DNA of 64,000 bases from an uncultured Bdellovibrionales bacterium (GCA_964406815.1 CAYOTC010000002.1:7906-71905); one strand, 5' to 3'. Numbered from the stretch's first letter, positions 3,723-50,903 are shown. A program made the numbers and translations. Notes: generated from the letters alone by a model not told the origin.

Positions 3723-3731
3723 AATAATAAC

Positions 3732-4655: not shown

Positions 4656-4679
4656 TTTTTATTTTTTTTCGAGTTTATT

Positions 4680-5303
4680 TTATTTAAAATTTTGTAAATT
4701 CATCTCAAGCAAATCTGGGTTTAGCGTTTTTAATAATAAATAAGCAATAAACGCCAGAATAAGTCCGGCAATGGCATCGGTAATGAATTTTTTGGCTTTT
4801 CCGGTACTACTTGAATTTCCGGCGCTGGTAATATACATAAATCCTCCAAGAGTAATCATAAGAAGGGCGGCGATCCCAATTGTCCAAAGGCCGAATTTAT
4901 AAATTGCATTTATATATTCAGGAAGATTCGTTGAAACACCTTCAAAACCGGGTATTTTTTCTAATAAAGTATATGTATATCCAGAGGATTTAGGGGATAT
5001 TTTTTTCCCAAAATCAGATTTTATTAAAGTATTTGCAATTTCTTCTTGACTTGCGTTCTTATTATTATCTATGAAATCATTTATTTTAGCAGTGGTTTTT
5101 TCTCCATATTCCTTTCGACAAGAATTTAAAAAAGCAGTTTTATCGGCATCTGTCTTAATTTGTTTTAAAATTCCCTTAGAAATCATTAAATTCATCATAT
5201 TTTCGCAATCATCAGCATAGACTGTTGGAACTAAAAAAAATAACAAAATAAAAACATTAAAAAGAGCGAATGTTATATTTATTTTTTTTTCATTAATCAC
5301 CAT
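4680..5303 (-). CDS. T4SS pilin-like protein (paralog)
   Basis: Signal/TM N-terminus and two C-terminal TM helices with 'LGGFMYITSAGNSSSTGKAKKFITDAIAGL', the same motif as the neighbouring pilin-like gene. Confidence 0.5.
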   Translation of the reverse strand: MVINEKKINITFALFNVFILLFFLVPTVYADDCENMMNLMISKGILKQIKTDADKTAFLNSCRKEYGEKTTAKINDFIDNNKNASQEEIANTLIKSDFGKKISPKSSGYTYTLLEKIPGFEGVSTNLPEYINAIYKFGLWTIGIAALLMITLGGFMYITSAGNSSSTGKAKKFITDAIAGLILAFIAYLLLKTLNPDLLEMNLQNFK

Positions 5304-7725: not shown

Positions 7726-7742
7726 CTTCTTAAGGTTAAAAT

Positions 7743-8402
7743 TTATCTTAAATTAGCAATCAAATAAGCATCTAATATTATTATAGATAAAAATCCAGAA
7801 ATATACGAATATAAAATTGATTTGCTCAAATAGCTTGTTAATCCTCCAGTGGTGGCCAGGATTAGAAATGGAAGCATTTGCCAAGAAAATGATTTTGTTA
7901 ATAATAAAAATAAGGCAAAAACGATAAATTGTATCAAAATTGCAAAAGATCCAATTGATTTCTTGAGAGAAAAAAGCATAAATCCCCGGAAAAAATATTC
8001 ATTAAAGATAAGATATAAATTCACAAAAACAATTTCATAAAGAACAAACGTCCAGAATTTTGAAACAACAATTTCCGGTAGTATATAGTTTTTAGAAAAA
8101 TTAGAATATTTGAAGAGAAATAAAAAAATAATCAGATTTAAAATTAAGGCACTGATTGATAGGATTACTCCTGTTTTTTTGTTTCCTAAGCCGATGCCGT
8201 ATTCAGTAAGTTTCTCTTTGGTTATGAATTTTATAAAAAGTAGAGGCAATAATATGAGAAAAAACAATCCCTTTGTTAGGGCTTGAATTGATCCTGAAGA
8301 GGGGAAAAAAATAAACAATGCCAAAGAAAAAATAATCACAACTAAAGAAGCAATTTGTTTATTTTTTTCTTTATAAAAATTGAAATCTAATCCCGGATTC
8401 AT
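7743..8402 (-). CDS. Polytopic membrane protein, CPBP/Abi-like (possibly non-catalytic)
   Basis: 6-7 TMs. 'FNEYFFRGFM' resembles CPBP motif 1 (EExxxR/FRG), but the protein contains no His at all, so catalytic motifs 2 and 3 are absent. Confidence 0.3.
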   Translation of the reverse strand: MNPGLDFNFYKEKNKQIASLVVIIFSLALFIFFPSSGSIQALTKGLFFLILLPLLFIKFITKEKLTEYGIGLGNKKTGVILSISALILNLIIFLFLFKYSNFSKNYILPEIVVSKFWTFVLYEIVFVNLYLIFNEYFFRGFMLFSLKKSIGSFAILIQFIVFALFLLLTKSFSWQMLPFLILATTGGLTSYLSKSILYSYISGFLSIIILDAYLIANLR

Positions 8403-8422
8403 ATTTTTTATTACTAAATAAA

Positions 8423-8932
8423 CTATCGATCATTATCCTGCCTTTCTTTAAGGGTAAGAATGAATGTTATGATTACAGTTATTGTTTGAATGGGTAGAAA
8501 ATTTATACCTAAAACTAATTCCATAGCAGTTCCTCCAGCCAGTGTTCCGTATTTTTTGACCAAGGAATTGGCGTTATTTTTTTTGGATGAGGCGCCGGCT
8601 AAAAGGAGGGTAAAAAAGATTAAAACTGAAGCCATAAAAGTTATCAACCATCCGATTCCAAAAAAAATAATTCCAAAATAATCAAAAATATCTTTCAGGG
8701 CTGCCATAGCAAGCGCGATTCCGAACATCCAATCAGTAAAAGGATTGAGATAAGCTGCAAGACTTATTGCTTCTTTTATTCCTTGTTTTTTTTCTTTTAA
8801 AACAGAACTAATTGCGCTTTTTTCATTTTTCTTTTTTTCTTCCTCTGAATTTTTAACAGGCATATTTTTGTCTGTATTGTCTCCATTTCTAATTTCCTCA
8901 AGTCTTTTTTTGTGTTCTATTTCCTGTTCCAT
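8423..8932 (-). CDS. Small membrane protein with charged N-terminus, hypothetical (T4SS-locus associated)
   Basis: A Lys/Glu-rich N-terminal 60 aa, then 3-4 TMs. Confidence 0.4.
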   Translation of the reverse strand: MEQEIEHKKRLEEIRNGDNTDKNMPVKNSEEEKKKNEKSAISSVLKEKKQGIKEAISLAAYLNPFTDWMFGIALAMAALKDIFDYFGIIFFGIGWLITFMASVLIFFTLLLAGASSKKNNANSLVKKYGTLAGGTAMELVLGINFLPIQTITVIITFILTLKERQDNDR

Positions 8933-8978
8933 AAGGTCAAATCTTAGTTAATTCATTTTCCGATATATCAAAAAAAAA

Positions 8979-10823
8979 CTATTCCAAGCCTTCTTCATCG
9001 GCAAATTCTCTTTTGGCTTGTTCAATTTCCAGAAGTTGGGAAGGATCAGTGGTAATTATCTGGTCTTCGGAATATGATGCTAATATTTTGATAGCAGCGT
9101 GTTTGGCGCCGGCAAAAAATATGCCTTCTCCGACATTGCTTTCAAGAAGAAGGAATTTTTCCTGATCAGTAAGATAGAAAGTTTCAGAAATAACGTCAAT
9201 TCCGGCCGGAGATTGCTTGAGAAGAAGTTGCAGGGAGGAGTTGGTAACGATAGCTTTTCCATAACGGGAAGTTAAAAAGTCATTTACATCCTGAGTAATT
9301 GTTGTTAGTCCGGTATAATATTTACGACAACGCTTGGCAACGCCGAACAAAAATGATGCTGCGTCGTCATATTTCATCATAACCCAAGCTTCATCAACCA
9401 TAACCAGGCGACGTTTACGATTAGCCCGCATTTCATTCCAGATGAATTGCAAAATCACATACATTGCAATCGGTCGCAAAGATTCTTCCATATCGCGGAT
9501 ATTGAAGACAACCAATTGGTTATCTGTTTTTATGTTGGTCGGATGATTCAGAAATCCGGAAAATACCCCTTCGGTATATTTTTCCAATCTTACCGCCAAA
9601 TCATCTCCCCCATCCATACTTTTAAGAACTTGATATAAATCAGACATTGTCGGAAAAGATTCTTTTGGAATGGAATTAAAATCAGTCTCAATAGAAATGT
9701 CACGAATAGCATAAGTTTCATGAACGGCTCGATCCAGGATAGAATCTTCTTCCGGAGTTATGTTTCCAAGCATAATATGAAGAAGTCCGAGCAGATTGGC
9801 GATATTATTTCTTAGGATATCTTCCTGATTTTCGTCTTCTTTGACTTGGGGTAAGTCAAATGGGTTGATGTGATCGCTGGAATTAAGAGAAATTCGGATA
9901 AATGTTCCGCCAACCGTGTCGCAAAGATGCTTGTATTCATTTTCCGGATCAATGATAATAACTTCCGTTCCAAGCATTAAAGAGCGAAGGACATCAAGTT
10001 TGACGGCATAACTTTTTCCGGCTCCAGATTTGGCGAAAACAACCATATTGGCGTTTTCCATCTCAAAACGGTCGAAAATTATCAAACTGTTGTTGTGGCG
10101 ATTGATTCCATAAAGCACTCCGGTGTTAGTGGAAATAGTTGAAGAAACAAAGGGAAAAGTGGTTGAAAGCGGAGCGCTGTTCATATTTGTTCCACTATTC
10201 AACTCGTCATTAGCTAGAGGGATTGTTGAGTTATATCCTTGCTCGGTTTTAAAAATTGCCGGTTTGACATAAACCAATTGGGCTTCCAAAATAGCTTCTA
10301 TGCTTTTCATTATCTCCCCCACTTCTTTTTCAGTATCTCCATAAGCGGTAATATATAGTCCGAATTTGAAAAATTTCTCCGTTCCTTGTTGGAGTTTATC
10401 GCGGAGTTCCTCAATATCTTGAATGGCGGTTTCAAGGACGGGATTTCTGATAAGTCCTTTTTCCTGTTCGATATTGATTTGAGATTCGACTTGCGTGGCG
10501 CTTTTTTTCAGGTTTTTTAATATATCATAAGTTTCAATTGGATGAACAAACATCGCTATATCAATCGGCATATCGATATTTATAATAGGAGAAAACCAGT
10601 TACTCTGGAGATATCTTGGATAAGCCATAGCAAAAAGTGTTCCGGCATAAGTCTGACCAACCTGGATATATTTCGGAGAAATGTTTATAGCGGCCGGCGC
10701 CAAAAGATCCTGGAGTTTGGCTAAGCCTTCCTGGTATATTTTTTCCGAGGCGATTACTTCATCTTCAATCTGTTTTGATTGGACAGGCGACGTCTTTTTT
10801 TGTTTTCCAAAAAAATCAAGCAT
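8979..10823 (-). CDS. virB4: VirB4/TrbE/CagE-family conjugative ATPase (central and C-terminal ATPase part)
   Basis: Walker A 'FAKSGAGKSYAVK' and Walker B 'LVMVDEAWVMM'. Length and motif order match the VirB4 ATPase domain. Confidence 0.8.
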   Translation of the reverse strand: MLDFFGKQKKTSPVQSKQIEDEVIASEKIYQEGLAKLQDLLAPAAINISPKYIQVGQTYAGTLFAMAYPRYLQSNWFSPIINIDMPIDIAMFVHPIETYDILKNLKKSATQVESQINIEQEKGLIRNPVLETAIQDIEELRDKLQQGTEKFFKFGLYITAYGDTEKEVGEIMKSIEAILEAQLVYVKPAIFKTEQGYNSTIPLANDELNSGTNMNSAPLSTTFPFVSSTISTNTGVLYGINRHNNSLIIFDRFEMENANMVVFAKSGAGKSYAVKLDVLRSLMLGTEVIIIDPENEYKHLCDTVGGTFIRISLNSSDHINPFDLPQVKEDENQEDILRNNIANLLGLLHIMLGNITPEEDSILDRAVHETYAIRDISIETDFNSIPKESFPTMSDLYQVLKSMDGGDDLAVRLEKYTEGVFSGFLNHPTNIKTDNQLVVFNIRDMEESLRPIAMYVILQFIWNEMRANRKRRLVMVDEAWVMMKYDDAASFLFGVAKRCRKYYTGLTTITQDVNDFLTSRYGKAIVTNSSLQLLLKQSPAGIDVISETFYLTDQEKFLLLESNVGEGIFFAGAKHAAIKILASYSEDQIITTDPSQLLEIEQAKREFADEEGLE

Positions 10824-10854
10824 AAATTCTTATTACTTCGTGTTTTATTTGATA

Positions 10855-11541
10855 TTATTTTAATTCTATGTTTGAAATATCTCCTAGTCCGGAATTGTTG
10901 GCAGTAGAAGGATTATAGCTGTTGAACATCAACTCGATGAGCTCTTGAGTTTTAAGCGGGATTATTTTCAGTCCTATTCCGGATAAAGCGGCAACTACTT
11001 GGTCAATGCGCTGGTTAAGCTGGGATTTATATATTTCGAAATTCTCTCTTTTTTCCAATATATTTTTTTTGGGATCAAGAAGGCTTTGCAGATTTTTGAA
11101 AAAACCGCCTTCTTTGTTTTCAATCGGAGAAAATGGAACAATGATATAAAAACTTTTATCCATTATATTGGATACGGAAATCAGTTGTCTTATGAAATTT
11201 CTATATTCGGATATTTGGAGGCGCATCAGTTCACTAGACTGTTGTTTTTCTTTATCAGTCAGAAAATCAAGATATTTATCCATATTGATTTTTCTTGAAC
11301 TGATCAATATTTGAACGGGAAAATCGACGGAATTGAGAAAACTTTGGTAATGACCAATAACTGCTTCCTGTTCCTCGGTTGATTTTAGATCGAAATTTAT
11401 GGAAGAAACTCCAAGCACGGCGCGCAAAGCGCCGTTTTTCAAAACAATCACATCTTCCTTTATTTCAGCCACGTCAATGAATTGCTGAGTGGCGGAAGTG
11501 GTGGTTTTTTTTGTATTTTTTTCTGAGTAAAGTTTTTCCAT
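10855..11541 (-). CDS. VirB4 N-terminal-domain-like protein encoded as a separate ORF 32 nt upstream of the VirB4 ATPase ORF
   Basis: 'FIDVAEIKEDVIVLKNGALRAVLGVSSINFDLKSTEEQEAVIGHYQSFLNSVDFPVQILI' resembles the VirB4/TraC N-terminal region. Same strand as virB4. Combined length 228+614 aa matches full-length VirB4. Confidence 0.45.
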   Translation of the reverse strand: MEKLYSEKNTKKTTTSATQQFIDVAEIKEDVIVLKNGALRAVLGVSSINFDLKSTEEQEAVIGHYQSFLNSVDFPVQILISSRKINMDKYLDFLTDKEKQQSSELMRLQISEYRNFIRQLISVSNIMDKSFYIIVPFSPIENKEGGFFKNLQSLLDPKKNILEKRENFEIYKSQLNQRIDQVVAALSGIGLKIIPLKTQELIELMFNSYNPSTANNSGLGDISNIELK

Positions 11542-11620
11542 AGATGAATTATAACACGGTTTTTATTTTTTATTTTACAAAAATAATAAATTCTAAAATT
11601 TAAAATATGATCTTTTGAGA

Positions 11621-12022
11621 TTATTTTCTTTTATTTATGTCAAGCGACTCAGAAATTTGGGAGAGCTCGTCAAAAGAAGCGGTTTTTCGAAGATTTTTTT
11701 TTGGAGCTGTTTTTAAAATGGTGTTTTTTGCTTGATTTTTTTCCGTGATTTTTTTCCAAATATACATTCTTGGTCTCATAAAAAAGTAAAATATCGAGCC
11801 GACAAGAAAAACAAAAGGCTGGCCATAGGGGCGATAAAAAGCAAAAGCTAGGGCGATAGCCAGAACCGGAATTGCTGCGATATAGAATATTTGAGTTTCA
11901 AGGAAGGTATAAAGAAGAAGCACGATTATTCCCCCTAAAAAAAGCCAACCGAGCTGTTTGGCGGTCAGTGGACCGACAATCTTGTCTTCGACATTTATAA
12001 ATTGTGGAACATTAAACATCAT
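11621..12022 (-). CDS. PrgI/VirB3-like small membrane protein
   Basis: 133 aa with 2 TMs. The N-terminus 'VPQFINVEDKIVGPLTAKQLGWL' matches the PrgI-family pattern (..eDki.GplT.rQ). Immediately upstream of virB4, as in Gram-positive T4SS loci. Confidence 0.5.
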   Translation of the reverse strand: MMFNVPQFINVEDKIVGPLTAKQLGWLFLGGIIVLLLYTFLETQIFYIAAIPVLAIALAFAFYRPYGQPFVFLVGSIFYFFMRPRMYIWKKITEKNQAKNTILKTAPKKNLRKTASFDELSQISESLDINKRK

Positions 12023-12119
12023 AAATTCTTATAACATATATCATATAACATATATCATATAACATATATCATTGTAACACGTAATAAAATATTTTATTTG
12101 TATTTATTAATTTGAAAAA

Positions 12120-13283
12120 TCAATTCTCTTTTAGGTTGACGACATTTTTCTGGGAAAAATTGTCTTTGACAGGATTTTTCAATTGAATATTGCTCAAGTC
12201 AACAGTTGAATTTGAGAATGCTTTTTTAGGTTCGGCTGGCGGGAAATTTTTTTGTGAGTTTATTTTTTCTATGGGAAATTTATGCGGAGAGGAAAAGTTG
12301 ATATTGTTTTGATTTTCCGGAGCGGGGTTTTCATTTTTTGGATTCAAATCTCTTCTCCAATTGCTCAATCTTTCTTCTACATTGACTTCCGGTTTTTTTT
12401 CGGAAGGTCTTAGGTTGATTGAAGACGAGAATGAGGCTGGTTTTGCTGAAGGTTTTTCTTGAGGTCTCAGAAAGATTACCTGTTTTCTGTCGGCATCAAT
12501 TGAAAGCGGAGTATTTTCATCAAATGATTTGGCGATATCGGTCAATTTTTCTCTTTCAGAAGAAGAAAGTTTCTGCGTGTTGATGTTTCGAAAAAGATAA
12601 TCCATTCGCACCATCTGATCGTGATTGTTTATTCCGACGTTGAACATATAATCAGAAATCCAATTCTTGATCGATGGCCGGACCGGTTCAGGGAATGATT
12701 TCAATCGGATGTGTTCAGATGTAATAAGCTGTTCGCCAATTTCCGGAAATTTTTTCATCGCGTCGGAGATGTTGAGGTTTAGGAGATTTTGGGGAGTTTG
12801 ACGAATTTCTTCCTTTTTTATTTCTTCCATCTTTTCTTTTTCTTCATCCTCTTTTTCCCTGATTATCCAAGGCTCTATTTCTAAAACTTTTTGCCAAGCA
12901 GCATCTTCGGAAATAATTGGTGTAGTTTTTAATCGTTCCCATTTGTATAAAAGTTCTGGTGCATTAGTAAAATAATCGGGAAATTTAGCAAAAAGTCTTT
13001 TGTTTATTTCATATGAAATTCCAAAAGCTATATTATCGGCAATATTATTTTGTTTGACTATGTGAGGTAGATTTTCCAATTTTTCTTCGCCTACAAAGAT
13101 TAATCCTACGGGTGTAGATAATTGTTCAATAATTTTTTCTTGTTCACTATAAAGAAAGCAAGATTTTTCAAGTTCAAAACGAAAATCATTTGAACCAAAA
13201 AATTCTCTTTCTGAATCTGGTAATTTTGAAATTTTTTCAAAAAAATCCATAGAATAAAAATAATTAAAGCTATTTGTATGCAC
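12120..13283 (-). CDS. Hypothetical cytoplasmic protein (T4SS locus)
   Basis: 387 aa, no TM, Glu/Lys-rich central region. Confidence 0.4.
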   Translation of the reverse strand: MHTNSFNYFYSMDFFEKISKLPDSEREFFGSNDFRFELEKSCFLYSEQEKIIEQLSTPVGLIFVGEEKLENLPHIVKQNNIADNIAFGISYEINKRLFAKFPDYFTNAPELLYKWERLKTTPIISEDAAWQKVLEIEPWIIREKEDEEKEKMEEIKKEEIRQTPQNLLNLNISDAMKKFPEIGEQLITSEHIRLKSFPEPVRPSIKNWISDYMFNVGINNHDQMVRMDYLFRNINTQKLSSSEREKLTDIAKSFDENTPLSIDADRKQVIFLRPQEKPSAKPASFSSSINLRPSEKKPEVNVEERLSNWRRDLNPKNENPAPENQNNINFSSPHKFPIEKINSQKNFPPAEPKKAFSNSTVDLSNIQLKNPVKDNFSQKNVVNLKEN

Positions 13284-15648
13284 GCAATTGAGGATCTCTG
13301 TCGATAGTTTTTTTCAATGATTGAACATTAGGATCGGTGCCTGGTGCAGAATTATAAATATATCTAACAATGTTTCTTGCTTTAGTATTGTCCATATTAC
13401 TCACCATCTCTTTGAATTTTCCAATACTAATATTTCTAGCAAAGGATTCTTTATGGAAAGTGCTTACAGTTGAAATGTCAAAATCAGAGAGAGTGTCTTT
13501 ATTTCCTTTTTCATAAATATATTTCTCTAGAGAAGGGTCTATACTGGCTGATAGTTTTCCTGTTGTTGCTGTGTAAGCTCTCTGAACAAATTTAGAAGTT
13601 GAATCTCCTGGAACATTGTATGTACTATTAGAAGCAAGTTTATTCAATGAAATTTCTAGATTATTTTTAAAAGAAGCTCCTTTTTTCTTTAATTTTACAA
13701 TATCATCAATATTTGCAGCATCCTCTTTAGCTACAATTTCCATAAATGCAGCATTTTTATAAGTATCACTTTTATAATTGTCAAGTCTGAATTGACTACT
13801 TTTCACAAAATCTTCCATATGCTTAGTATTGAAATTTATATCTCCAGTTGTTGGATCTGTGTCGATTGTTCCATCTGATTTGAAATTTGCAAAAGCCAAT
13901 TCTGGTCTAATTGATCTTACTTTATAAGCAAGTTGTTTAAATTCTTGAGAAGCTTCTCCAAAGGTTCTTCTGAAATCTTCAAAATCAGTATCTTCTATTA
14001 TGCCATGTTTATCAGCTAATTCTTTAATGGCTGCAGCTCGTGTATATTTATCAGAGCTTGTTGCAAGAGTCTTAAGATCAGATGCCATCTTATTGCTCAT
14101 ATCATTATCATCATAAGCCTCTTTAACTTTCTTGGCATTAAGTTTATCTTGAGCGCCTTTAACTCCCATTCTAGCTGCCAATTTAGCCTCTCTTTCCTCA
14201 GCTCTTTCAGAACCAAGCCAACCTGATTTTTTAAACTGCGCAAAGCGCTGTTTCATTCCGCCCGGAATACCGGTTTTTTTAAATCCCCATGAAGCTAAAG
14301 GTCTTATACCGCCGAGATTTTTGGCGAAAGATTTTCCGTGTTTAGTGACGCTGCCTACGATTGCGCTTGCGCCGATTAGACTGCTTTTTTTAGCTACCAT
14401 CATTCCCATCCAGAGAATAATAACCGGAATGGAAAAATAAGCTGCTGAGCCTATGAGTCTTTGCAGAGAGCTAATTTTAGTATTATCTTCTGCTAAAGAT
14501 GAAAACTGATTTTGTATGCCTGCCATTTCTCCTATTATTTGCAATGAAATAAAAACGAAAAAAAGCATTATCGGTCCGAAAAAAGCGGCATCCATCAATT
14601 TTTTCCACCACTCGCCGGCTTTTCCGGAAAGTTCCGATCCGGGAAGCGTCGGACCGACAAAAGCTATGGGGGAAAAAATAATCAGAATTGCCAATGTGAC
14701 AACTCGGACAAGCAAAAGAAGCGCTAAAACAATAAAAGTCATTGCCAGAATAAATGTGAAAACTATGGAGGCGATTATAAACATAACATCTGGATTGGGT
14801 GTTGTTATAATTTTTTCCATTTCGCTAGCATCCGCTATGTTTGCTAATGTTCCGGTGGGTGATAATTGATTGATGAAAAAATACATAATAACATTAGCAA
14901 CATCGATGATGAAGCGGGTTATGGGATAACTGAAATTAACAAGAAGCGCCATTAGGATGAGGTTGGGAACAACCTTTGACCAATGATATTTATCCACTTG
15001 GAAAACTGTGCAGAAAGCGCTATAGAGAAGAACAAAGATAAAAACAATATTTAGAAAATCTCTGACTAGTGACCATGCAAAGTAAATAGCTTCATTATTT
15101 ATTATGGTGCTTAGGACAGTGGGGTTAATTATGGCATCAAAGATTACCCCAGCAATGCTTAATAAAACTACCACGAAGCTAAGTATGTGAAGAAGTGGGC
15201 ACTTCAGAAGATAATTACCCAGATTTGATATGCCAGAAGGAAGATTAGCACAGACGCTGGTATTATTTTCAACTGCCTTAGACGATCCGGCTCTGTAATG
15301 TTTATCGTGATTTTTAATTTCTGAAGTTGGTTTTATTCCTTGACCTCCATTATTCCAATATTCTATTCCGTCAAACTTAATATGAGGATTGGGAACTGCC
15401 ATATTTGAAAATCCATCGTTGATTTTTTCTTTCTGACAAATTTCATAACATTTTTCTTTGTCGGAAGCTTCTAATGGGTATTTATCGTTATAAAAAACAG
15501 ATTCTTTTGCATATCCAGAGCCTGATCGTCCACAAATACATTCTCCCGCCTGCGCTTTTTCTGCTCCAAATAATCCAAAAAAAGCCGTTATTGCCAAAAC
15601 AAAAACAGCAAAAAGAATAATTGTTTTTAAAAATTGATTATTTTTCAC
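13270..15648 (-). CDS. VirB6/TrbL-like polytopic channel protein with Cys-containing N-terminal ectodomain and long C-terminal soluble domain
   Basis: Signal peptide, 'GECICGRSGSGY', at least 7 TMs in the middle, then a ~330-aa hydrophilic tail. The architecture is typical of Gram-positive VirB6 homologs (e.g. TcpH/PrgH-like). Confidence 0.45.
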   Translation of the reverse strand: MKNNQFLKTIILFAVFVLAITAFFGLFGAEKAQAGECICGRSGSGYAKESVFYNDKYPLEASDKEKCYEICQKEKINDGFSNMAVPNPHIKFDGIEYWNNGGQGIKPTSEIKNHDKHYRAGSSKAVENNTSVCANLPSGISNLGNYLLKCPLLHILSFVVVLLSIAGVIFDAIINPTVLSTIINNEAIYFAWSLVRDFLNIVFIFVLLYSAFCTVFQVDKYHWSKVVPNLILMALLVNFSYPITRFIIDVANVIMYFFINQLSPTGTLANIADASEMEKIITTPNPDVMFIIASIVFTFILAMTFIVLALLLLVRVVTLAILIIFSPIAFVGPTLPGSELSGKAGEWWKKLMDAAFFGPIMLFFVFISLQIIGEMAGIQNQFSSLAEDNTKISSLQRLIGSAAYFSIPVIILWMGMMVAKKSSLIGASAIVGSVTKHGKSFAKNLGGIRPLASWGFKKTGIPGGMKQRFAQFKKSGWLGSERAEEREAKLAARMGVKGAQDKLNAKKVKEAYDDNDMSNKMASDLKTLATSSDKYTRAAAIKELADKHGIIEDTDFEDFRRTFGEASQEFKQLAYKVRSIRPELAFANFKSDGTIDTDPTTGDINFNTKHMEDFVKSSQFRLDNYKSDTYKNAAFMEIVAKEDAANIDDIVKLKKKGASFKNNLEISLNKLASNSTYNVPGDSTSKFVQRAYTATTGKLSASIDPSLEKYIYEKGNKDTLSDFDISTVSTFHKESFARNISIGKFKEMVSNMDNTKARNIVRYIYNSAPGTDPNVQSLKKTIDRDPQLRAYK

Positions 15649-15674
15649 TGGATTTTATTTCTGAAAAACTATAA

Positions 15675-16619
15675 TTATCTTCTATTGGCTGATTGATAGG
15701 CGGCAGATGGTCCATATTGGTTTACGGAATCATTAATATTTTGATTGACGCGACTATTGACAGAGTTTATTTCTTTGTTGATTGATTTTTTCACGTTTCC
15801 AATCCCGGCTTGAACGGATTGGGTGATCATTTGGGAAACTACCGTTGAAATAATTTCTCCCATACTGGTTGCTCCGGCAATAGTTTTGTTTCCCAAATCA
15901 TAGGCATTGACAGTATTGCCATATAAGATTGATCCGGGAATATAAATTTGTCCACTGCCATCTTCATCTCCGCCCCCTTTAAATCCGCTATATGCAACTG
16001 ATTTTGCTTGGGCTATTTCTTTTTCTTCTTCCAAATAGGCATTGTATTTATTTTTTATATAAAAGTCCATCGCCCAAGGATTGTTTACTCCTTCCATGTA
16101 TGAATTAAGCCCGGAAAAGTTATAGTTATTTCCGCTCCTGAACATGCTGTCAGAATTGGAAAAATTTACCTGCAAGGGTTCGTTTTCAGAAGCTGATCCC
16201 TTGGCAATGCCTTCCATTAATTTAAAATAATTACTTCCATTGGCATTTATATAATTAGAACTTCCCTTGCCACCGAGAGTGTAACTTATTTGGTCATTAA
16301 TGTAACGATTCGTTCTTTCAGTTGGTTGATTTATTAAATAATCTTCCCAATTAGTTATGAATTTTGTATCAGAAAGGCTGTTTCCGGAAAGCATACTTTC
16401 AGTTTGTTTAATCATCATATTAGCCGCTTGTTTTTTCTCTACTCCTCTCAGTACTCCATTCATAAGTGACTTTAATTCCTCAACGCCAGCTCCTATGATA
16501 GCTGCCGGGATTGACATCCAAGCATTAGCACATTTTGTAGGAAAAGATGAAAAAATAAAAAACAAGATAAGAAGAATAAAAATCTTTTTTCCAAAAAGTA
16601 ATTTATTTTTTTTAACCAT
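15675..16619 (-). CDS. Secreted hypothetical protein (T4SS locus)
   Basis: N-terminal signal/TM (IFILLILFFIFSSF). Asn/Ser/Gly-rich. Confidence 0.4.
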   Translation of the reverse strand: MVKKNKLLFGKKIFILLILFFIFSSFPTKCANAWMSIPAAIIGAGVEELKSLMNGVLRGVEKKQAANMMIKQTESMLSGNSLSDTKFITNWEDYLINQPTERTNRYINDQISYTLGGKGSSNYINANGSNYFKLMEGIAKGSASENEPLQVNFSNSDSMFRSGNNYNFSGLNSYMEGVNNPWAMDFYIKNKYNAYLEEEKEIAQAKSVAYSGFKGGGDEDGSGQIYIPGSILYGNTVNAYDLGNKTIAGATSMGEIISTVVSQMITQSVQAGIGNVKKSINKEINSVNSRVNQNINDSVNQYGPSAAYQSANRR

Positions 16620-16620
16620 T

Positions 16621-17706
16621 TTATTTGTCTAGATTAATTTGAAAATCTTCTTCTGGGGCAAATAGACCGATATCTTTTAATTTTTTCTTTAAATTTTCAT
16701 CGTATTTCAAATCATATTCACTGAATTTTTGGGTTATCTCTGTTGAATAGTTTAAAATTTCTCCTAGAAGAGCTTCAATTTTTCCATAAGAAATTATTTG
16801 AGAAATAGGATCATCAGTTTTGATTGCTATGTCATTTTTAAGAGAAAGAGAATAATAAGCGAAACGTAATCCCCTGGTGTGTAGTTCAATTAAATCTTCT
16901 GGAACCTCAACTTCTTTCATTTGTTCGATTATTTTTTCAGAATTTTCAGCGAATTCTTTTATTGAATCAGTGTTTCCTGTTGAGATAGCTGAAATAATTT
17001 GATTTGTTGGCTCGGCAAAGAAATTGGAAATATCTGATCCGGAAGTTATCGGTTTGTCAGAATTGCTGGAAAAAATATAATAAATGGCAATTATATAATT
17101 GGTGAAATCTTCTTTCTTCTTTTCTATCTGACGTTCCTTGCTCAGTTTCCCATAATTCTGTTTTTTTATTTTTATATCATCGGTATTTATTTCCGGCATA
17201 TCATCTTCATTTATTTCACTGGAAGATTTTAGGATTTCATCTACTATGGCTTGAGTTTCTTCCAGGGTAATTTCTTGATCCTCAGAATCTTTGCTGCTGG
17301 AAAGAATGCTTATTTTTTCCGCCATTTTCTGGGTAAGATTTTCTTCCGATTCGTAACTGGATTTATTGTTTGTATTTTTTTCATTTTCTATTATTCTATC
17401 CCCCGGAGCGGGAATAGTCGGATTATAACCGCTTTTAACTTCGATTCCATCAGAATAGCTGTCGCTATCGGTGTCGCGATTTTGCGGATCGGTTCCATAT
17501 ATCTTTTCTTCTTCATCAGAAAGCCCATCCTGATCGCTGTCAAGAAAAATACTTTTAGTATTGGTTGAATTTTCTGCGACAGCATAAAAGGAAAAAGTCA
17601 ACGCTAAAAGAAACAGCAACACCAAAAAAGAAAGATTGATATTTTTCATTTTCATATTGAAATAATTATAGCATAATTTTTTCCAATACAAAAATATTTT
17701 ATCCAC
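16621..17706 (-). CDS. Secreted acidic protein with DxDxDG-type Ca-binding motifs
   Basis: Signal peptide, then 'DSDQDGLSDEEEKIYGTDPQNRDTDSDSYSDGIEVKSGYNP' (thrombospondin-type-3 / EF-hand-like Asp repeats). Confidence 0.4.
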   Translation of the reverse strand: MDKIFLYWKKLCYNYFNMKMKNINLSFLVLLFLLALTFSFYAVAENSTNTKSIFLDSDQDGLSDEEEKIYGTDPQNRDTDSDSYSDGIEVKSGYNPTIPAPGDRIIENEKNTNNKSSYESEENLTQKMAEKISILSSSKDSEDQEITLEETQAIVDEILKSSSEINEDDMPEINTDDIKIKKQNYGKLSKERQIEKKKEDFTNYIIAIYYIFSSNSDKPITSGSDISNFFAEPTNQIISAISTGNTDSIKEFAENSEKIIEQMKEVEVPEDLIELHTRGLRFAYYSLSLKNDIAIKTDDPISQIISYGKIEALLGEILNYSTEITQKFSEYDLKYDENLKKKLKDIGLFAPEEDFQINLDK

Positions 17707-26435: not shown

Positions 26436-28040
26436 CTATTCCACCCGATACTTCTCTTTCATTAATTCCTCTTCTTTTTTCTTTTCTTCTTCAATTTTTT
26501 TCTTAGCCATATCGCGAAGTTCCTCTAAGTCTTTATTATTAAGATCTTTAGCTAACTCAAGAAGTTTTGTTTTTTCATTCAATTTTTGGTCGTCAATAAC
26601 CAAGGCCAGAAGAACATCCAAAATTGTGCCGATTTTCGGTCCAGGAGCTATGTTTAGTTTTTCCATCAAATCATTTCCGTTAATTTTCAGTTGTTTGACG
26701 GAAATAGCATCGTAAGAAACTTTTTCCACCATAAACTTGAAGTGGCGAAGCTTATACGGCACAGCTTTTGGTACTCCAGAGCCCAATCTGTCCGCTATCC
26801 TGACATCAATAAGATCGTTGATATTTTCCAAACCGACTTTTTGGATGACACGTCGCACCCCCGACTCCCCGACTTCATCAACGTTGTAATAAAACATATG
26901 GTTTTTCACGAGAAGTGCGGTTTTATCGATGATATTTTTGGAAAATTTCAAGCGTTCAAGAATTTTTTTTGCAAGGCGTGCCCCCGCATATTCATGAGCA
27001 TAAAAAGTGGCATTCTCCCCTTTTCCGCGCTTGGTTTCCGGCTTTCCTATATCATGAAGAAGAGAAGCCAGTCGCACTTCCAATTTTTTTGACGGACATT
27101 TTTCCAAACTGGCAATAAGATGTTTATAAACCGTATTATATGGTCCGTAATAATGATGATGGCTCTGCTCTACTTCTATTCCGATTTCGATTTCCGGAAT
27201 TATATATTGCAATAGGCCGGTTTCATGGAGTATTTCTACGCCTTTGGCCGGTTGAGCTGAAAGCATGATTTTCCCAAATTCGTCCCGAATTCTTTCGGCT
27301 GAAATGAATTTAAGGTTTTTAGCATTGCCTTTTATCGCTTTTAGGGTTTTATCTTCAATTTCAAAACCAAGTTGGACAGCAAAACGGACAGCCCGCATCA
27401 TTCGGAGCGCATCTTCATTGAATCTGTCAGTAGGCTTCCCTACTGCCCGGATAATTTTATTTTTCAAATCATTTTGTCCGTCGAATAAATCAATTATCTC
27501 AAAATCAATGTTTTTAATCTTAAGGGCCATAGCATTTATCGTAAAATCCCGGCGACTCAAGTCTTCTTCCAAGTTTTTGGCAAATTTTATGGCATCAGGA
27601 TGACGTTTGTCGGTATATTTCGACTCGATTCTATATGTCGTAATCTCTACAACTTCTACTTTCTCCGATTCTTGATCCTTATTTTCTGTTTCTTGTTTTC
27701 TGATTTTTACGCCGACTGTGCCAAAATCATTTTCATAAACACTATCTGGAAATATTTTCACGATTTCATTAGGTTTAGCATTAGTTGCGATGTCCCAATC
27801 TTTCGGTTCGACAGGCTCACCGTGGATGATTCTAATGAGAAAATCTCGCACACATCCGCCGACGATAAAAGCCTCAAAGCCGTTCTTTTCGAGCTCATTT
27901 GTCACTTCCAATATATACGGTGGAATTTTTTCAATCATATTATTGTCTTTATCATATACTTCTTCGCCATAAAAAGGCAAATCAAAAATTCCGGAAAATT
28001 TCCGGAGTTTTTTCGTTTGTGCCCTCAGCAGGAATTTCAC
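26436..28040 (-). CDS. cca: CCA-adding enzyme / poly(A) polymerase-family tRNA nucleotidyltransferase with HD domain
   Basis: 'FIVGGCVRD' (GGxVRD), 'RRDFTINAMA', and HD motif 'LLHDIGKP'. Confidence 0.8.
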   Translation of the reverse strand: MKFLLRAQTKKLRKFSGIFDLPFYGEEVYDKDNNMIEKIPPYILEVTNELEKNGFEAFIVGGCVRDFLIRIIHGEPVEPKDWDIATNAKPNEIVKIFPDSVYENDFGTVGVKIRKQETENKDQESEKVEVVEITTYRIESKYTDKRHPDAIKFAKNLEEDLSRRDFTINAMALKIKNIDFEIIDLFDGQNDLKNKIIRAVGKPTDRFNEDALRMMRAVRFAVQLGFEIEDKTLKAIKGNAKNLKFISAERIRDEFGKIMLSAQPAKGVEILHETGLLQYIIPEIEIGIEVEQSHHHYYGPYNTVYKHLIASLEKCPSKKLEVRLASLLHDIGKPETKRGKGENATFYAHEYAGARLAKKILERLKFSKNIIDKTALLVKNHMFYYNVDEVGESGVRRVIQKVGLENINDLIDVRIADRLGSGVPKAVPYKLRHFKFMVEKVSYDAISVKQLKINGNDLMEKLNIAPGPKIGTILDVLLALVIDDQKLNEKTKLLELAKDLNNKDLEELRDMAKKKIEEEKKKEEELMKEKYRVE

Positions 28041-28061
28041 CCCGCAACCATTTTTTGTTTG

Positions 28062-28133
28062 TCTCCTCAGTAGGAATCGAACCTACATCTCATCCTTAGG
28101 ACGGATTTGCTCTATCCATTGAGCTATGAGGAG
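28062..28133 (-). tRNA. tRNA-Arg (anticodon CCT)
   Basis: Manually folded. Acceptor CTCCTCA/TGAGGAG, D-arm GCTCAATGGATAGAGC, anticodon loop GTCCTAA, T-arm GTAGG-TTCGATT-CCTAC, discriminator A. Confidence 0.8.
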
Positions 28134-28165
28134 GAATATTAATTTTAAAAATGGTGCGAGGCAGG

Positions 28166-28238
28166 CCTACATCTCATCCTTAGGACGCCTGCCTGCCAGT
28201 AGGCAGGGATTTTCTCTATCCATTGAGTTATAGAAGCT
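28166..28238 (-). pseudogene. Truncated tRNA-Arg(CCT)-like pseudogene carrying a GC-rich hairpin insertion in the anticodon arm
   Basis: The 5' acceptor, D-arm and anticodon loop are near-identical to the adjacent tRNA-Arg. A 20-22 nt insert (gcctgcctgccagtaggcaggg) is present, and the T-arm is replaced by flank sequence. Overlaps the 3' end of the hydrolase ORF. Confidence 0.45.
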
Positions 28239-28802
28239 TGATATTATTTCAGTTATTTTTTTGTCGTATTTTTCATTCCAATCATGCTCCACGTTTTCCA
28301 TATCTATTATCGGGATATTTTTAGAATACAAATAATCTCGCATTATTTTATCACAATAAACATAATCTTTTTCTCCGCAAATCACAATCAGTTTATCTTT
28401 CGGAATTTCATTTAAAATAGCATCGAAATCATATCTTAGCAATTGCCAGCATTTTTTGATACTAAAAATATAATTTCTGAAGCCCTGTATATGTTTTTTT
28501 GTTGCAGGAGTTTTTTCGCGTCTGTGGAAAGTTATCCATTTTCCAAACCATGTAAAAATACTTCTTTTTGGAATTAAAGGATTCACCAAGATAAGATTTT
28601 GATTCTTGTTTTTTTTCCAATTGAGCAAAGCCCAATTGCATCCTAAACTATGACAGATTAAAAAATCAGCGGATATTGGATATGTTTCGGCTAATCGTTC
28701 TTTCCATATTTCTAGGACTGTATGTAGAGAATTTTTTCCAATATACATCCCCCCTTCATTCAGCCAACCGGGAATCAGAAGTATTTTTTTATTATTTTCC
28801 AT
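28167..28802 (-). CDS. Alpha/beta-hydrolase-fold protein (esterase-like)
   Basis: 'ILLIPGWLNEGG' and a nucleophile-elbow-like 'CHSLGC'. The track ORF's N-terminal extension to 28916 runs across tRNA genes and is taken as spurious. The C-terminal 18 aa are read out of the pseudo-tRNA. Confidence 0.45.
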   Translation of the reverse strand: MENNKKILLIPGWLNEGGMYIGKNSLHTVLEIWKERLAETYPISADFLICHSLGCNWALLNWKKNKNQNLILVNPLIPKRSIFTWFGKWITFHRREKTPATKKHIQGFRNYIFSIKKCWQLLRYDFDAILNEIPKDKLIVICGEKDYVYCDKIMRDYLYSKNIPIIDMENVEHDWNEKYDKKITEIISSFYNSMDRENPCLLAGRRPKDEM

Positions 28803-28817
28803 TTTATTTATCTTATG

Positions 28818-28860
28818 TGGACTTGAGGAGATTTGAACTCCTGACCCCTGCAATGCGCCA
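28818..28860 (-). pseudogene. tRNA 3'-half remnant (T-arm AGGAG-TTCAAAT-CTCCT plus acceptor strand) directly downstream of tRNA-Ala(CGC)
   Basis: Canonical T-arm and a 3' acceptor strand CAAGTCC-A are present. No matching D-arm or 5' acceptor. Confidence 0.35.
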
Positions 28861-28880
28861 CGCATCAAAACAAATTCTTG

Positions 28881-28953
28881 TGGACTGTACCGGAGTCGGA
28901 CCGGTGACCTCCGCAATGCGAATGCGGCGCTCTACCAACTGAGCTAACAGCCC
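28881..28953 (-). tRNA. tRNA-Ala (anticodon CGC)
   Basis: Acceptor GGGCTGT/ACAGTCC with the G3:U70 Ala identity pair, D-arm GCTCAGTTGGTAGAGC, anticodon loop TTCGCAT, and an unusual T-loop TCCGACT. Confidence 0.8.
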
Positions 28954-28975
28954 TAATAATTTTTTGTGCGGTGTA

Positions 28976-29103
28976 AAAATGCAGTGCTCGGACCCTGTCC
29001 GCCCTCTGGCGGAAACTGAGCTACAAGCCCGTCGAATCAGTGAACAATACTGGACTCGGACCAGTGACCTCTATAGTGCTTGCCCCGCACAAATTTATAA
29101 ATA
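28976..29103 (-). pseudogene. Rearranged tRNA-Ala-like fragments bounded by inverted GTGCGG/CCGCAC
   Basis: A 3' half (AGGTC-ACTGG-TCCGAGT-CCAGT-ATTGTTC-A), a 10-nt spacer, then a 5' half (GGGCTTG-TA-GCTCAGTT... with a CCGCCAGAGGGCGG hairpin in the D-loop). Both halves resemble the intact tRNA-Ala. Confidence 0.35.
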
Positions 29104-29220
29104 TATTTGCAGGCACAATCTTTTTAACGGAAATGTTTTTAATAATCTGAGACATTCAGTAAATTATTTGTTGCGGGGTGAAAATGTAGCGCTCTAACTT
29201 CACCCCGCACCATTTTTTTG

Positions 29221-29294
29221 TGGACCTGTCCAGGTTCGAACTGGAGACCTCGCCGATGTGAACGGCGCACTCTAACCAGCTGAGCTACAGGTCC
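29221..29294 (-). tRNA. tRNA-Val (anticodon CAC)
   Basis: Acceptor GGACCTG/CAGGTCC, anticodon loop TTCACAT, T-arm TCCAG-TTCGAAC-CTGGA. Confidence 0.85.
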
Positions 29295-29353
29295 ATAAAA
29301 ATGGTGCGGGGCAAGACTGAGCTAATTGTCCGAATTAAATTTTTATAAATTAG

Positions 29354-29426
29354 TGGACCTGAGGAGACTCGAACTCCTGACCTCTTCCATGCCATGGAAG
29401 CGCTCTACCAGCTAAGCTACAGGCCC
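29354..29426 (-). tRNA. tRNA-Ala (anticodon GGC)
   Basis: Acceptor GGGCCTG/CAGGTCC with G3:U70, D-arm GCTTAGCTGGTAGAGC, anticodon loop ATGGCAT, T-arm AGGAG-TTCGAGT-CTCCT. Confidence 0.85.
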
Positions 29427-29577
29427 GAAATAAAAATGTTACTCAAAAATTTTACCTCGACTATCCCCTTTTAGTCAAACTTCCTGATCGATTAAGTTTG
29501 TATAAAGTAATTTTTTAGACAAGAATAATTTTATATTTGCGATAATTCACTCACAATACTAGAATAAATATATTCCT

Positions 29578-31065
29578 ATGACTGATTTATTAAGAAAAAT
29601 TAAGGCAGAACTGCACGTCTGGTTTTTCTATGGTTTTATTTTGACTTTTTCTCTTACAATCAGGAAAGTTATTTGGCATTTTCCTCTTGAAGGATTATTT
29701 AATGAACATTCCGGACTGTATTTTTATTTATCAGATATTTTTCTGGTTGCGACACTTATTTTATGGGTTATATCATTATATAACAATAAAAAGGATAAAT
29801 TGTCAAGTTATAAGTTGTGGAAAACTATTCCTATCCACAGATTATCCATATTTTTACCGCTTATTTTAGCGGTTTTTTCATTTTTATCAATTTTCTGGTC
29901 AGAAAATAAGATCGTAGCTATTTTTAGATCAATTAAATTATTAGAACTATACCTTCTTTATATATACATTTATTTTCAAAATGTTCCACGTGGAACATTT
30001 TTAAAAAACATTTTAAGAATAATTATAGCCATTGGATTAATTCAATCAGTAATAGCTATTTGGCAATTTATTGTTCAGCATTCAATCGGACTTAGATTTT
30101 TTCAAGAAAGCATAATTTCACCATTTATTCCGGGAGTAGCTAAAGTTATCTTAAACGATAATATATTCATTCGTGCTTATGGGTTAATGCCACATCCGAA
30201 TATTTTGGGATGTTTCTTGCTTTTCTCGATTATTTTAACGATACTGTGCAAAAAATTGTTCCACGTGGAACAATTTAGATATTTATTAAAATTAGTTTTA
30301 TTTATTCAGTGTGTCGCCTTAATATTAACTTTCTCTAAATCTGCAATGATTGGCTTGATTATATCAATTATATATACTAATGTTCCACGTGGAACATTAG
30401 TAGAATCTAAAAATTTGTTTAAAGTGATTTTTAATAATATTAAAAAATTGTTCCACGTGGAACAATATAGGAGATGGATATTAAGCGGAGCAATTATTAT
30501 TGTATTAGTTTTTATTATAATTAAGCCAAATTTAAGCTCTTTATTTACTAAATCACTAGGGGAGCGTTTATTTTATTTAAATGTTTCACGTGGAACAATT
30601 TTGGATAATCCAGTTCTTGGTGTGGGAATAGGGCAGTTTGTAATGAATATTCCAAATTATGTTTCTAGTAGTTTTGAAGCGTTCCAATATCAGCCGGTTC
30701 ATAATGTATTCTTACTAATCTGGTCAGAGCTGGGGATTATTGGTTTAGGATTATTTATTATTTGGATCTGGAAAGTTATTTTTGATGATAGGAAAATGTT
30801 CCACGTCTGCCTGTCTGGTAGGCAGGTGGAACATTTAAAAGAAGATTATTATAAAGAAAATATTGTAATGGGGGATAGTAATACTATATTAGAACATAAT
30901 AATAATATACTGTCAATAAAGACGATAGAAGTTTATTTTGAAGCAATTCTGGTTGGATTTTTGTTTATAATGCTTTTCGATCATTATTTTTGGGATATCT
31001 GGCAAGGACAAATTATTTTTTGGCTAACGATGGGAATAATTGCTGGAATTAAATTTAGGCATTAA
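29578..31065 (+). CDS. O-antigen ligase / Wzy-like membrane protein interrupted in-frame by six palindromic insertions
   Basis: Polytopic membrane protein. C-terminal 'VLGVGIGQFVMNIPNY...QYQPVHNVFLLIWSELGIIGLGLF' resembles the Wzy_C core. The palindromes translate as NVPRGT / LFHVEQ in loop regions. Confidence 0.5.
   Translation: MTDLLRKIKAELHVWFFYGFILTFSLTIRKVIWHFPLEGLFNEHSGLYFYLSDIFLVATLILWVISLYNNKKDKLSSYKLWKTIPIHRLSIFLPLILAVFSFLSIFWSENKIVAIFRSIKLLELYLLYIYIYFQNVPRGTFLKNILRIIIAIGLIQSVIAIWQFIVQHSIGLRFFQESIISPFIPGVAKVILNDNIFIRAYGLMPHPNILGCFLLFSIILTILCKKLFHVEQFRYLLKLVLFIQCVALILTFSKSAMIGLIISIIYTNVPRGTLVESKNLFKVIFNNIKKLFHVEQYRRWILSGAIIIVLVFIIIKPNLSSLFTKSLGERLFYLNVSRGTILDNPVLGVGIGQFVMNIPNYVSSSFEAFQYQPVHNVFLLIWSELGIIGLGLFIIWIWKVIFDDRKMFHVCLSGRQVEHLKEDYYKENIVMGDSNTILEHNNNILSIKTIEVYFEAILVGFLFIMLFDHYFWDIWQGQIIFWLTMGIIAGIKFRH
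29978..30836. repeat. Six dispersed copies of the perfect palindrome (A)AATGTTCCACGTGGAACATT(T) or its AATTGTTCCACGTGGAACAATT variant
   Basis: Copies at ~29978-30002, 30253-30276, 30379-30398, 30446-30466, 30579-30600 (one mismatch) and 30794-30836 (split by a nested 21-nt hairpin). Spacing is irregular (68-275 bp). Confidence 0.7.
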
Positions 31066-31182
31066 ACTGTAAATAGGTTCGTATAAAAACGAGTTAGCTG
31101 AAATACTGTTCTTTTTAAAACGAATATTTGTTTTTCTGATTTAATTGAATTTATTTCCATAAATAATTATTAAAATAAAAAT

Positions 31183-31569
31183 ATGTTTAAAGAGTTTAAG
31201 GAGTTTGCTGTAAAAGGCAACATAATTGACTTAGCTGTCGGTATCATTATAGGATCGGCTTTTGGAAAAATTGTCAGCTCATTGGTTCAGGATATTATTA
31301 TGCCACCCATTGGTTTGTTGCTTGGAGGAATTGATTTTTCCAGTTTTATGATTACTCTTAAAAAAGCAACTGAAGTTTCTGAAGCTGTAACGATAAATTA
31401 CGGTATTTTTATCAATAATTTAGTCGATTTTATAATTATCGCATTCGCGATATTTGTGGTTATAAAACAGATAAATAAATTAAAGAAAAAAGAAGAAGTG
31501 AAACCAGTGGAACCGGCAGAAGAAATTTTATTGCTGAGAGAAATAAGAGATCAGCTTAGACAAAAATAA
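31183..31569 (+). CDS. mscL: Large-conductance mechanosensitive channel
   Basis: '[31 protein letters not shown]' N-terminus, 2 TMs, charged C-terminal helix. Confidence 0.85.
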
Positions 31570-50314: not shown

Positions 50315-50389
50315 GGTCGCTTAGCTCAGTTTGGTTAGAGCGTCACATTGACATTGTGAAGGTCAGTGGTTCGAGTCCACTAGTGACCA
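50315..50389 (+). tRNA. tRNA-Val (anticodon GAC)
   Basis: Acceptor GGTCGCT/AGTGACC, D-arm GCTCAGTTTGGTTAGAGC, anticodon loop TTGACAT, T-arm AGTGG-TTCGAGT-CCACT. Confidence 0.85.
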
Positions 50390-50432
50390 CTAGTCAGTTT
50401 ATAAAGTTAAAAGTTCATAAAGTTGGAAGATT

Positions 50433-50777
50433 ATGAAAGCTGAAAGGTTTGAAGATTTATTATTTTGGAAAAAGGCGGAGCAATTAGTGTTATTCATTTA
50501 TAAAGAATTTGGAAAATGCAAGGATTATTCTTTTTGTGATCAAATTAGGCGTGCGAGTGTTTCAGTTATGAATAACATTGCTGAAGGATTCGAAAGAAAA
50601 TCCAATAATGATTTTAAGAATTTCCTTTTTATTGCTAAAGGGTCATGCGGGGAAGTCAGATCTATGCTGTATTTAGCTTTAGAGTTAAAATATATTAATG
50701 AAAGAGAATATAAAGAGTTAAATTTTTTAGCAACAGAAATATCAAAAATGATTTCTGGATTCATAAAGACTTTGTGA
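50433..50777 (+). CDS. Four-helix-bundle protein (23S rRNA intervening-sequence protein family)
   Basis: 'LLFWKKAEQLVLFIYKEF...NNIAEGFERKSNNDFKNFLFIAKGSCGEVRSMLYLA' matches the TIGR02436/PF05635 signature. Sits between two tRNA genes. Confidence 0.65.
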   Translation: MKAERFEDLLFWKKAEQLVLFIYKEFGKCKDYSFCDQIRRASVSVMNNIAEGFERKSNNDFKNFLFIAKGSCGEVRSMLYLALELKYINEREYKELNFLATEISKMISGFIKTL

Positions 50778-50829: not shown

Positions 50830-50901
50830 GGGACCATAGCTCAGCGGTAGAGCAGGCGACTCATAATCGCTTGGTCGCTGGTCCGAATCCAGCTGGTCCC
50901 A
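50830..50901 (+). tRNA. tRNA with CAT anticodon (elongator Met or tRNA-Ile2/lysidine substrate)
   Basis: Acceptor GGGACCA/TGGTCCC, anticodon loop CTCATAA, T-arm GCTGG-TCCGAAT-CCAGC, G1:C72 pair (not an initiator). Confidence 0.8.
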
Positions 50902-50903
50902 CA

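Follow-up and report, generated by a model that had tools for sequence, protein, structure and literature searches.

The six palindromes clustered in one gene of the 64-kb stretch of DNA analysed here (64,000 nt, hereafter the window) are, judging from their sequence, very probably chromosomal parS sites which would form an origin-proximal ParB loading array inside that gene. The gene (29578-31065, plus strand) carries all the sites; its 495-aa product is a polytopic membrane protein of the Wzy_C / O-antigen-ligase-like type. The closest homologues of this gene belong to Candidatus Moranbacteria / Moraniibacteriota (Parcubacteria, Patescibacteria/CPR), a lineage of tiny uncultured bacteria.

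Six palindromes within one open reading frame

Four of the sites are exact copies of the 16-mer TGTTCCACGTGGAACA: site 1 (29982-29997, extended palindrome 29978-30001), site 2 (30257-30272), site 3 (30381-30396, within a 26-bp palindrome at 30376-30401) and site 4 (30449-30464). Site 5 (30582-30597) lies in the conserved Wzy_C core and differs by one change (TGTTTCACGTGGAACA). Site 6 (30797-30833) is split at its centre, with 21 nt inserted between TGTTCCAC and GTGGAACA. An earlier note on this DNA had counted six perfect copies; the total of six sites stands, but only four are exact, one being a variant and one interrupted. Sites 1 and 3 are read as NVPRGT, sites 2 and 4 as LFHVEQ, site 5 as NVSRGT and site 6 as MFHV-CLSGRQ-VEH. 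The 495-aa frame is unbroken, as had been stated for the NVPRGT and LFHVEQ copies, NVSRGT being an addition to these. When the A/T flanks are included, the palindromes extend over 20-26 bp (AAAATGTTCC...GGAACATTTT, AAATTGTTCC...GGAACAATTT and ACTAATGTTCC...GGAACATTAGT), which confirms the two flavours previously distinguished. In the alignment of homologues described below, sites 1 to 5 occupy slots 1 (a conserved slot, alignment A1), 2, 3, 4 and 5, respectively.

Successive sites are separated by 275, 124, 68, 133 and 215 bp. This irregular spacing (68-275 bp) inside a conserved and intact ORF rules out a CRISPR array, as already proposed, and the repeat itself is a perfect palindrome. By chance, the corresponding 14-mer is expected 0.03 times per window with up to two mismatches, and at least five matches were reached in none of 100 shuffled windows. 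The hexamer CACGTG occurs at only five places in the 64 kb, all of them at parS sites. No further copy of the 16-mer was detected elsewhere in the window with up to three mismatches, and every site falls within 29578-31065; both the restriction to a single Wzy_C-like ORF and the absence of other copies in the 64 kb are therefore upheld.

The host protein matches the Pfam profile PF04932 (E 6.6e-12, 45.9 bits for a cut-off of 31.7). It has more than 1000 homologues, the best named of which are from Moranbacteria/Parcubacteria, and PF04932 is present in all but one of those among the matches listed. An alignment of 24 host-protein sequences shows 57 invariant residues. The window has two further Wzy_C paralogues (110-532 and 523-1725); neither includes a parS site, and they thus provide an internal control. 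Five of the six window sites map to helix-helix junctions in a low-confidence AlphaFold model (mean pLDDT 60.5), which suggests that the parS sites are mostly located at junctions of predicted helices. A search of the region 27500-31500 with Rfam identified four tRNAs and nothing else.

The repeated word corresponds to parS

The parS site of B. subtilis is TGTTCCACGTGAAACA (PMC4333373, PMC8299390), and each half of TGTTCCACGTGGAACA matches one half of this sequence. The intact window sites, four exact TGTTCCACGTGGAACA and one TGTTTCACGTGGAACA, fit the parS consensus TGTTNCACGTGAAACA. Variants observed among orthologous genes include exact TGTTCCACGTGAAACA as well as TGTTTCACGTGAAACA, and the invariance covers the full 16 bp rather than CACGTG alone. 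These matches support the previous proposal of an array of binding sites for a dimeric protein embedded in coding DNA, and allow the putative sites to be named as canonical parS. The parS consensus had gone unrecognised in the earlier note.

As a positive control, public metagenome contigs were scanned for two exact 16-mers 20-50 nt apart, with no other selection. The 120 contigs returned range from 26 to 74% GC. ParA and/or ParB homologues are present on 51 of them, and the distance from the 16-mer to the ParB ORF has a median of 925 bp (typically 0.7-1.3 kb). The pairs are typically found in non-coding DNA, upstream of parA. The proximity of the 16-mer to parA/parB genes over such a wide GC range indicates that many phyla use exactly this word as their parS. 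Only 4 of the 120 metagenome loci (L147, L171, L172 and L193) correspond to the Wzy-like gene, with 7-11 sites each. A further locus, L158, with 8 sites and no ORF, was considered as a decayed orthologue and rejected: it comes from an unrelated low-GC organism in which the cluster is intergenic and located after gyrA.

Conservation of the array in Moraniibacteriota

At least one of the three palindrome translations (VPRGT, FHVE[QH] or CSTWN) was found in 117 of 120 homologues examined, in 1-13 copies. A word-based protein search may favour homologues that bear the motif, and the test was therefore repeated on DNA. One genome per GTDB species was scanned with patterns independent of parS (YGL[FM]PHPN and FDHY[LF]WDI), which yielded 80 loci. 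Within the gene, these loci include 597 parS-like sites (at most one mismatch) in 141 kb, or 4.2 per kb. The median is 7 sites per orthologous gene (range 0-17), and 79 of the 80 loci carry at least two. Their flanks contain 4 such sites in 1.157 Mb, a density approximately 1200-fold below that of the gene. For example, an orthologue only 44% identical, from a genome with 42.7% GC, exhibits 12 sites within 1.2 kb, compared with none over 20 kb of flanks; it shares with the window the gene order cca, Wzy, gyrA, MBL-fold hydrolase, S1, tilS, ftsH.

In the 24-sequence alignment, the sites fall into approximately six slots between conserved helices, while extra copies are found in variable inserts. 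The conserved slots are kept among orthologues that share 30-50% identity. Slot 5 (ERLFYLNVSRGTI) is the most conserved, and homologues devoid of intact sites carry decayed versions. Modules of three sites and tandem half-site units are duplicated locally in orthologues, and spacings of 37, 41 and 49 bp recur. The variable copy number, together with the repeated three-site modules and tandem half-site units, suggests that the array gains and loses sites through slippage or recombination acting locally, in loops that tolerate extra residues.

Selection on the DNA rather than on the peptide

All three reading frames are used by the sites in the Moraniibacteriota loci (270, 180 and 146 sites), the frame translations being VPRGT, FHVEQ/H and CSTWN. 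The VPRGT peptide is encoded by one identical 15-mer (GTTCCACGTGGAACA) in 205 of 207 cases and CSTWN by TGTTCCACGTGGAAC in 134 of 137. The use of three frames with near-invariant codons implies that selection acts on the DNA.

Slot 5 aligns without gaps with the parS-free Wzy_C paralogue at 523-1725. This site was thus overprinted on existing codons by substitution and not inserted. The view that each palindrome represents an insertion relative to homologues had to be abandoned: the slots are conserved, slot 5 is gap-free, and only some of the extra copies are located in variable inserts.

GC-rich hairpins that split parS sites

The interruption of site 6 is a GC-rich hairpin of 21 nt (GTCTGCCTGTCTGGTAGGCAG, 30805-30825). 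It belongs to a dispersed mini-palindrome family (approximately GCCTGCCTGCCGGCAGGCAGG) separate from parS. Site 6 and its insert fold as one long hairpin in which the insert is stacked on the parS arms (-15.8 kcal/mol, z = -7.7). A 75%-identical homologue, P0002, carries an intact FHVEH at the same position; the insertion is therefore recent. Members of the 21-nt family also split parS centres in L003, L007, L019, L028, L032, L049, L075, L081, L082 and others. In total, parS centres are split 47 times in 30 of 81 loci, by this family and by GC-rich hairpins of 30, 36, 42 and 45 nt. Outside the gene, a 20-nt hairpin is present in 26 flank copies, including one in the window at 28188-28207. The GC-rich hairpin is therefore a separate dispersed mini-palindrome, and the idea of a mobile element fits it better than it fits parS.

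Probable origin proximity and DnaA boxes

The GC skew of the left flank is lower than that of the right flank in all 34 loci that extend 8 kb or more to either side of the gene. Its mean is -0.13 in the 2 kb upstream of the gene, where 90% of the loci are negative, and approximately 0 to +0.04 downstream, the right flank being weakly positive and without strand bias. The minus strand holds 70% of the left-flank ORF bases in the related loci. In the window, the skew is 0.008 to the left and 0.116 to the right of the gene. In one relative (L011), dnaA lies 1.7 kb upstream of the gene, the two being separated by a tRNA-Arg/Ala/Val/Ala block; the same block precedes the window gene. In another (L165), the non-coding DNA immediately after dnaA holds DnaA boxes and five parS sites. 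The latter is a close relative, its gyrA being 74% identical to that of L017. The skew shift at the gene and the adjacency of dnaA in some relatives, all from incomplete genomes, indicate that the gene is probably located at or beside oriC.

Perfect DnaA boxes (TTATCCACA) are concentrated at the start of the gene. Its first 500 bp include 34 of them over the 80 loci (0.85 per kb), a level approximately 20-fold richer than that of the other 500-bp bins between -10 and +11 kb (approximately 0.04 per kb). In 27-30 orthologous loci, 1-4 perfect or near-perfect boxes are found 200-400 bp into the gene. They occupy the loop after the second helix and are read in varied frames and orientations (LWIT, LIHK, LSTG, VDN), which means that the boxes, too, are selected at the DNA level. 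In the window, the boxes are of the one-mismatch type only: three such 9-mers, TGTGGAAAA (29816), CTATCCACA (29831) and TTATCCATA (29842), lie in this loop at 29816-29850.

Alternative explanations

One of the explanations first put forward was that of a tiny mobile palindrome with a strong target preference, that is, a MITE- or RPE-like element of 16-20 bp whose in-frame insertions would be strongly biased towards this gene. The variation in copy number among orthologues (0-17), the presence of some copies in variable inserts, the local duplication of three-site modules and tandem half-site units and the recurring spacings of 37, 41 and 49 bp could all be read in this way. However, local slippage or recombination explains the copy-number variation, and of the 601 copies, the 1.16 Mb of flanks account for only 4. 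Moreover, orthologues that are just 30-50% identical retain approximately six slots, and the gap-free slot 5 arose by substitution. No element body is apparent: conservation stops at approximately 20 bp (A(A/T)-core-(A/T)T), with no target duplications, and the weak A/T preference in the flanks of the 16-mer is also observed at parS sites of other taxa. Finally, the same 16-mer is the parS site beside parAB in unrelated phyla. A mobile palindrome is consequently very unlikely. It is even harder to credit that the repeats are selected as a peptide motif, or as mRNA hairpins with a regulatory role in translation or transcription, although each of the sites is able to fold into a short hairpin (-7.8 kcal/mol) and the motifs lie at helix junctions in the low-confidence model. 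Three peptides derived from one DNA word, with almost no synonymous variation, exclude selection at the peptide level. As for RNA, the hairpins are not followed by a T-run, and Rfam detected only tRNAs in the region. The same word is moreover found in non-coding DNA, beside dnaA in L165 and beside parAB elsewhere.

The sites might instead be bound by a dimeric protein other than ParB, such as a Noc-type ParB paralogue or a regulator of the CACGTG-dyad type, with a role in nucleoid occlusion, gene regulation or DnaA control. The lack of a ParB gene in the window and in the related loci searched is in line with this, and the co-occurrence of the array with DnaA boxes would be compatible with a role in replication control. 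Against it, the full 16 bp are invariant and identical to parS, the 16-mer accompanies parAB in other phyla, and CACGTG by itself shows no enrichment or depletion elsewhere. The Noc site, as known, has a sequence different from TGTTCCACGTGGAACA, which also counts against a Noc-type protein. Such a binder is quite unlikely. The hexamer counts bear on a further lead as well, that of a target for a CACGTG methyltransferase or restriction enzyme: 71 occurrences were observed in 1.22 Mb of flanks for 77 expected under a Markov model, and this lead was dropped since no avoidance was detected.

ParB and the proposed partition mechanism

The reading of the sites as parS calls for a ParB protein. None of ParB, ParA, DnaA or SMC is encoded in the window, according to Pfam and motif scans of all ORFs. 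Similarly, no ParB or ParA homologue was identified in 82 related loci (approximately 1.3 Mb) using a motif scan and phmmer with Spo0J/Soj queries. The same probes gave strong ParA/ParB matches on the metagenome contigs. By analogy, we infer that a cognate ParB is encoded in these genomes and would bind the sites.

One or several parS sites, from 1 to approximately 23 per chromosome, are found near oriC, where ParB loads SMC, and the question of what drives their clustering has been raised (PMC7333895). The mechanism proposed here is drawn by analogy with characterised ParABS systems. ParB dimers would nucleate at each parS site, close as CTP-dependent clamps and slide onto the neighbouring DNA. 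As each site would nucleate a sliding clamp, an array of 5-17 close sites would build one large partition complex. Through this complex, the region near the origin may be singled out for SMC loading and for segregation, assisted by ParA where this protein exists, and it would be the first to be segregated.

As for why this gene should host the array, the simplest view is one of position and tolerance: in a compact genome it would be the gene immediately beside oriC, and its loops are permissive. On a more elaborate and unlikely reading, the gene is more than a passive carrier: the centromere and at least part of a DnaA-box origin region were deliberately embedded in it, and transertion, the coupling of transcription, translation and membrane insertion of its product, would keep the origin and centromere tethered to the membrane.

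Comparison with known systems

The parS/ParB system, dense parS clusters and single intragenic sites are already known. What is unusual here is that a centromere array, accompanied by DnaA boxes, is carried in-frame throughout a phylum within the gene for a conserved 495-aa membrane protein. Literature searches, incomplete in coverage, turned up nothing on parS, ParB or oriC for Patescibacteria, CPR, Parcubacteria or Moranbacteria.

B. subtilis and P. aeruginosa possess 10 parS sites, and Streptomyces coelicolor and Listeria innocua 20-23. The present array resembles the parS clusters of such chromosomal ParABS systems in its identical 16-bp inverted repeat and its multiple clustered sites. 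It differs from them in that the whole array (median 7, up to 17 sites over approximately 1-1.5 kb) is in-frame within one gene, is kept in the orthologous gene across the phylum and is not adjacent to parAB. In the other taxa sampled, by contrast, dense parS pairs or clusters are intergenic and typically upstream of parA. Single intragenic parS sites exist, for example inside B. subtilis spo0J, and function despite the coding overlap. Compared with that example, the Moraniibacteriota gene carries an array, uses three frames, encodes a polytopic membrane protein and includes DnaA boxes in the same ORF.

The plasmid centromeres F sopC and P1 parS are regular non-coding tandem repeats beside the par operon. 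They share with the present case a dense array of ParB-type sites which, by analogy, would form one partition complex, but the sites of the Moraniibacteriota array are unevenly spaced and belong to coding DNA of a chromosome. Rickettsia palindromic elements (RPEs) offer another parallel, with palindromic DNA tolerated in-frame and contributing extra peptide segments. RPEs are, however, longer and found in many genes, whereas a single gene holds the parS 16-mers, which were in part written over existing codons; the GC-rich hairpins of 21-45 nt that split parS sites are closer to RPE- or REP-like elements than the 16-mers are. Clusters of DnaA boxes are also known outside or at oriC, as in E. 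coli datA and the B. subtilis DnaA-box clusters. The Moraniibacteriota loci resemble these in grouping several TTATCCACA boxes within tens of bp and differ in that the boxes occupy a coding loop within the centromere-bearing gene itself, where they may be part of oriC or serve as a titration site.

Implications

The array would provide a first landmark, open to testing, for the region of origin and centromere in Moraniibacteriota and a simple marker of the origin-proximal region in fragmented CPR MAGs. It is also a clean natural case of dual coding: a single DNA word serves three reading frames, and synonymous drift is nearly absent. The arrangement further raises a mechanistic question, namely how the same 1.5 kb can accommodate ParB clamps, DnaA, RNA polymerase and co-translational membrane insertion. 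If the membrane tethering considered above were true, it would explain the retention of the array in one membrane-protein gene across the phylum and the presence of DnaA boxes in the same ORF. Such tethering would constitute a segregation anchor for minimal cells, which may partly replace ParA-driven transport.

Hairpin insertions and half-site repeats in the parS arrays

The parS sites of the Wzy_C/O-antigen-ligase-like gene (16-bp palindromes matching the chromosomal parS consensus) are in places interrupted by members of a dispersed family of GC-rich mini-hairpins with a consensus of about GCCTGCCTGCCGGCAGGCAGG. These are inserted at the exact centre of the palindrome. In total, 47 parS sites are split in this way, distributed over 30 of 81 loci, and the insert lengths are multiples of 3 nt, a small number of matches of 20, 31 and 47 nt being the exceptions. 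The family includes further length classes of 30, 36, 42 and 45 nt. Its members are not restricted to the gene: the window carries one copy at 30805-30825, within the sixth parS site, and another at 28188-28207. Among the related loci, it was identified in L003, L007, L019, L028, L032, L049, L075, L081, L082 and others. Five loci share a conserved element, AGTAGGAATCCCTGCCTGCCGGCAGGCAGGGAACCTAC, located 0.4-2.5 kb upstream of the gene (L004 at 8946, L044 at 7532, L059 at 9514, L075 at 9426 and L079 at 9648). Here the GC-rich hairpin appears to be embedded in a larger conserved sequence, which is possibly structured.

Another type of variation consists of the parS left half-site followed by 11-18 nt, repeated in tandem ahead of a full parS site, as in (TGTTCCACCCCAGTACAAA)n. 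Such arrays occur in L018 (4122), L081 (2021), L024 (3113) and L004 (10791). Where the units are 19 nt long, the reading frame shifts from copy to copy and no stops are created.

DnaA boxes within the gene

Summed over 80 species-level loci, the first 500 bp of the gene contain 34 perfect TTATCCACA boxes, a density about 20 times that of the flanks. In the orthologues (loci L004-L079) the DnaA boxes cluster 200-400 bp into the gene, in varying frames and orientations. The parS-bearing gene of the window itself carries three boxes with one mismatch each (29816-29850).

Other genes of the window

Two more Wzy_C-family genes lie at the left edge (110-532, cut by the window start, and 523-1725); neither contains a parS site. 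They are followed on the minus strand by a type IV secretion-like block (about 1786-17706) encoding a TraG/VirB4-type P-loop ATPase (8979-10823), a PrgI-family protein (11621-12022), pilin-like proteins and some large proteins without Pfam matches. The block is possibly a T4SS locus of the conjugative or CPR type. Elsewhere, between tRNA-Val (50315-50390) and tRNA-Met (50830-50902), an ORF at 50433-50777 belongs to the '23S rRNA intervening sequence protein' family (PF05635, E 5e-37).

parS clusters in other contigs

An unrelated organism (L158, 27% GC) carries eight parS sites within 770 bp (2419-3199), so a dense array is not in itself peculiar to CPR bacteria. The L158 sites occupy non-coding DNA directly after gyrA. 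The gene order continues with tadA-like, dnaX, ybaB and recR, and an SRP-RNA-like sequence is present. In a close Moranbacteria relative (L165), dnaA is followed by an AT-rich non-coding region (13299-13872), at which the contig ends. It includes DnaA boxes TGTGGATAA (13332) and TTATCCACA (13541) together with five parS sites, among them a direct repeat of ~186 bp, and looks like a conventional oriC-parS region.
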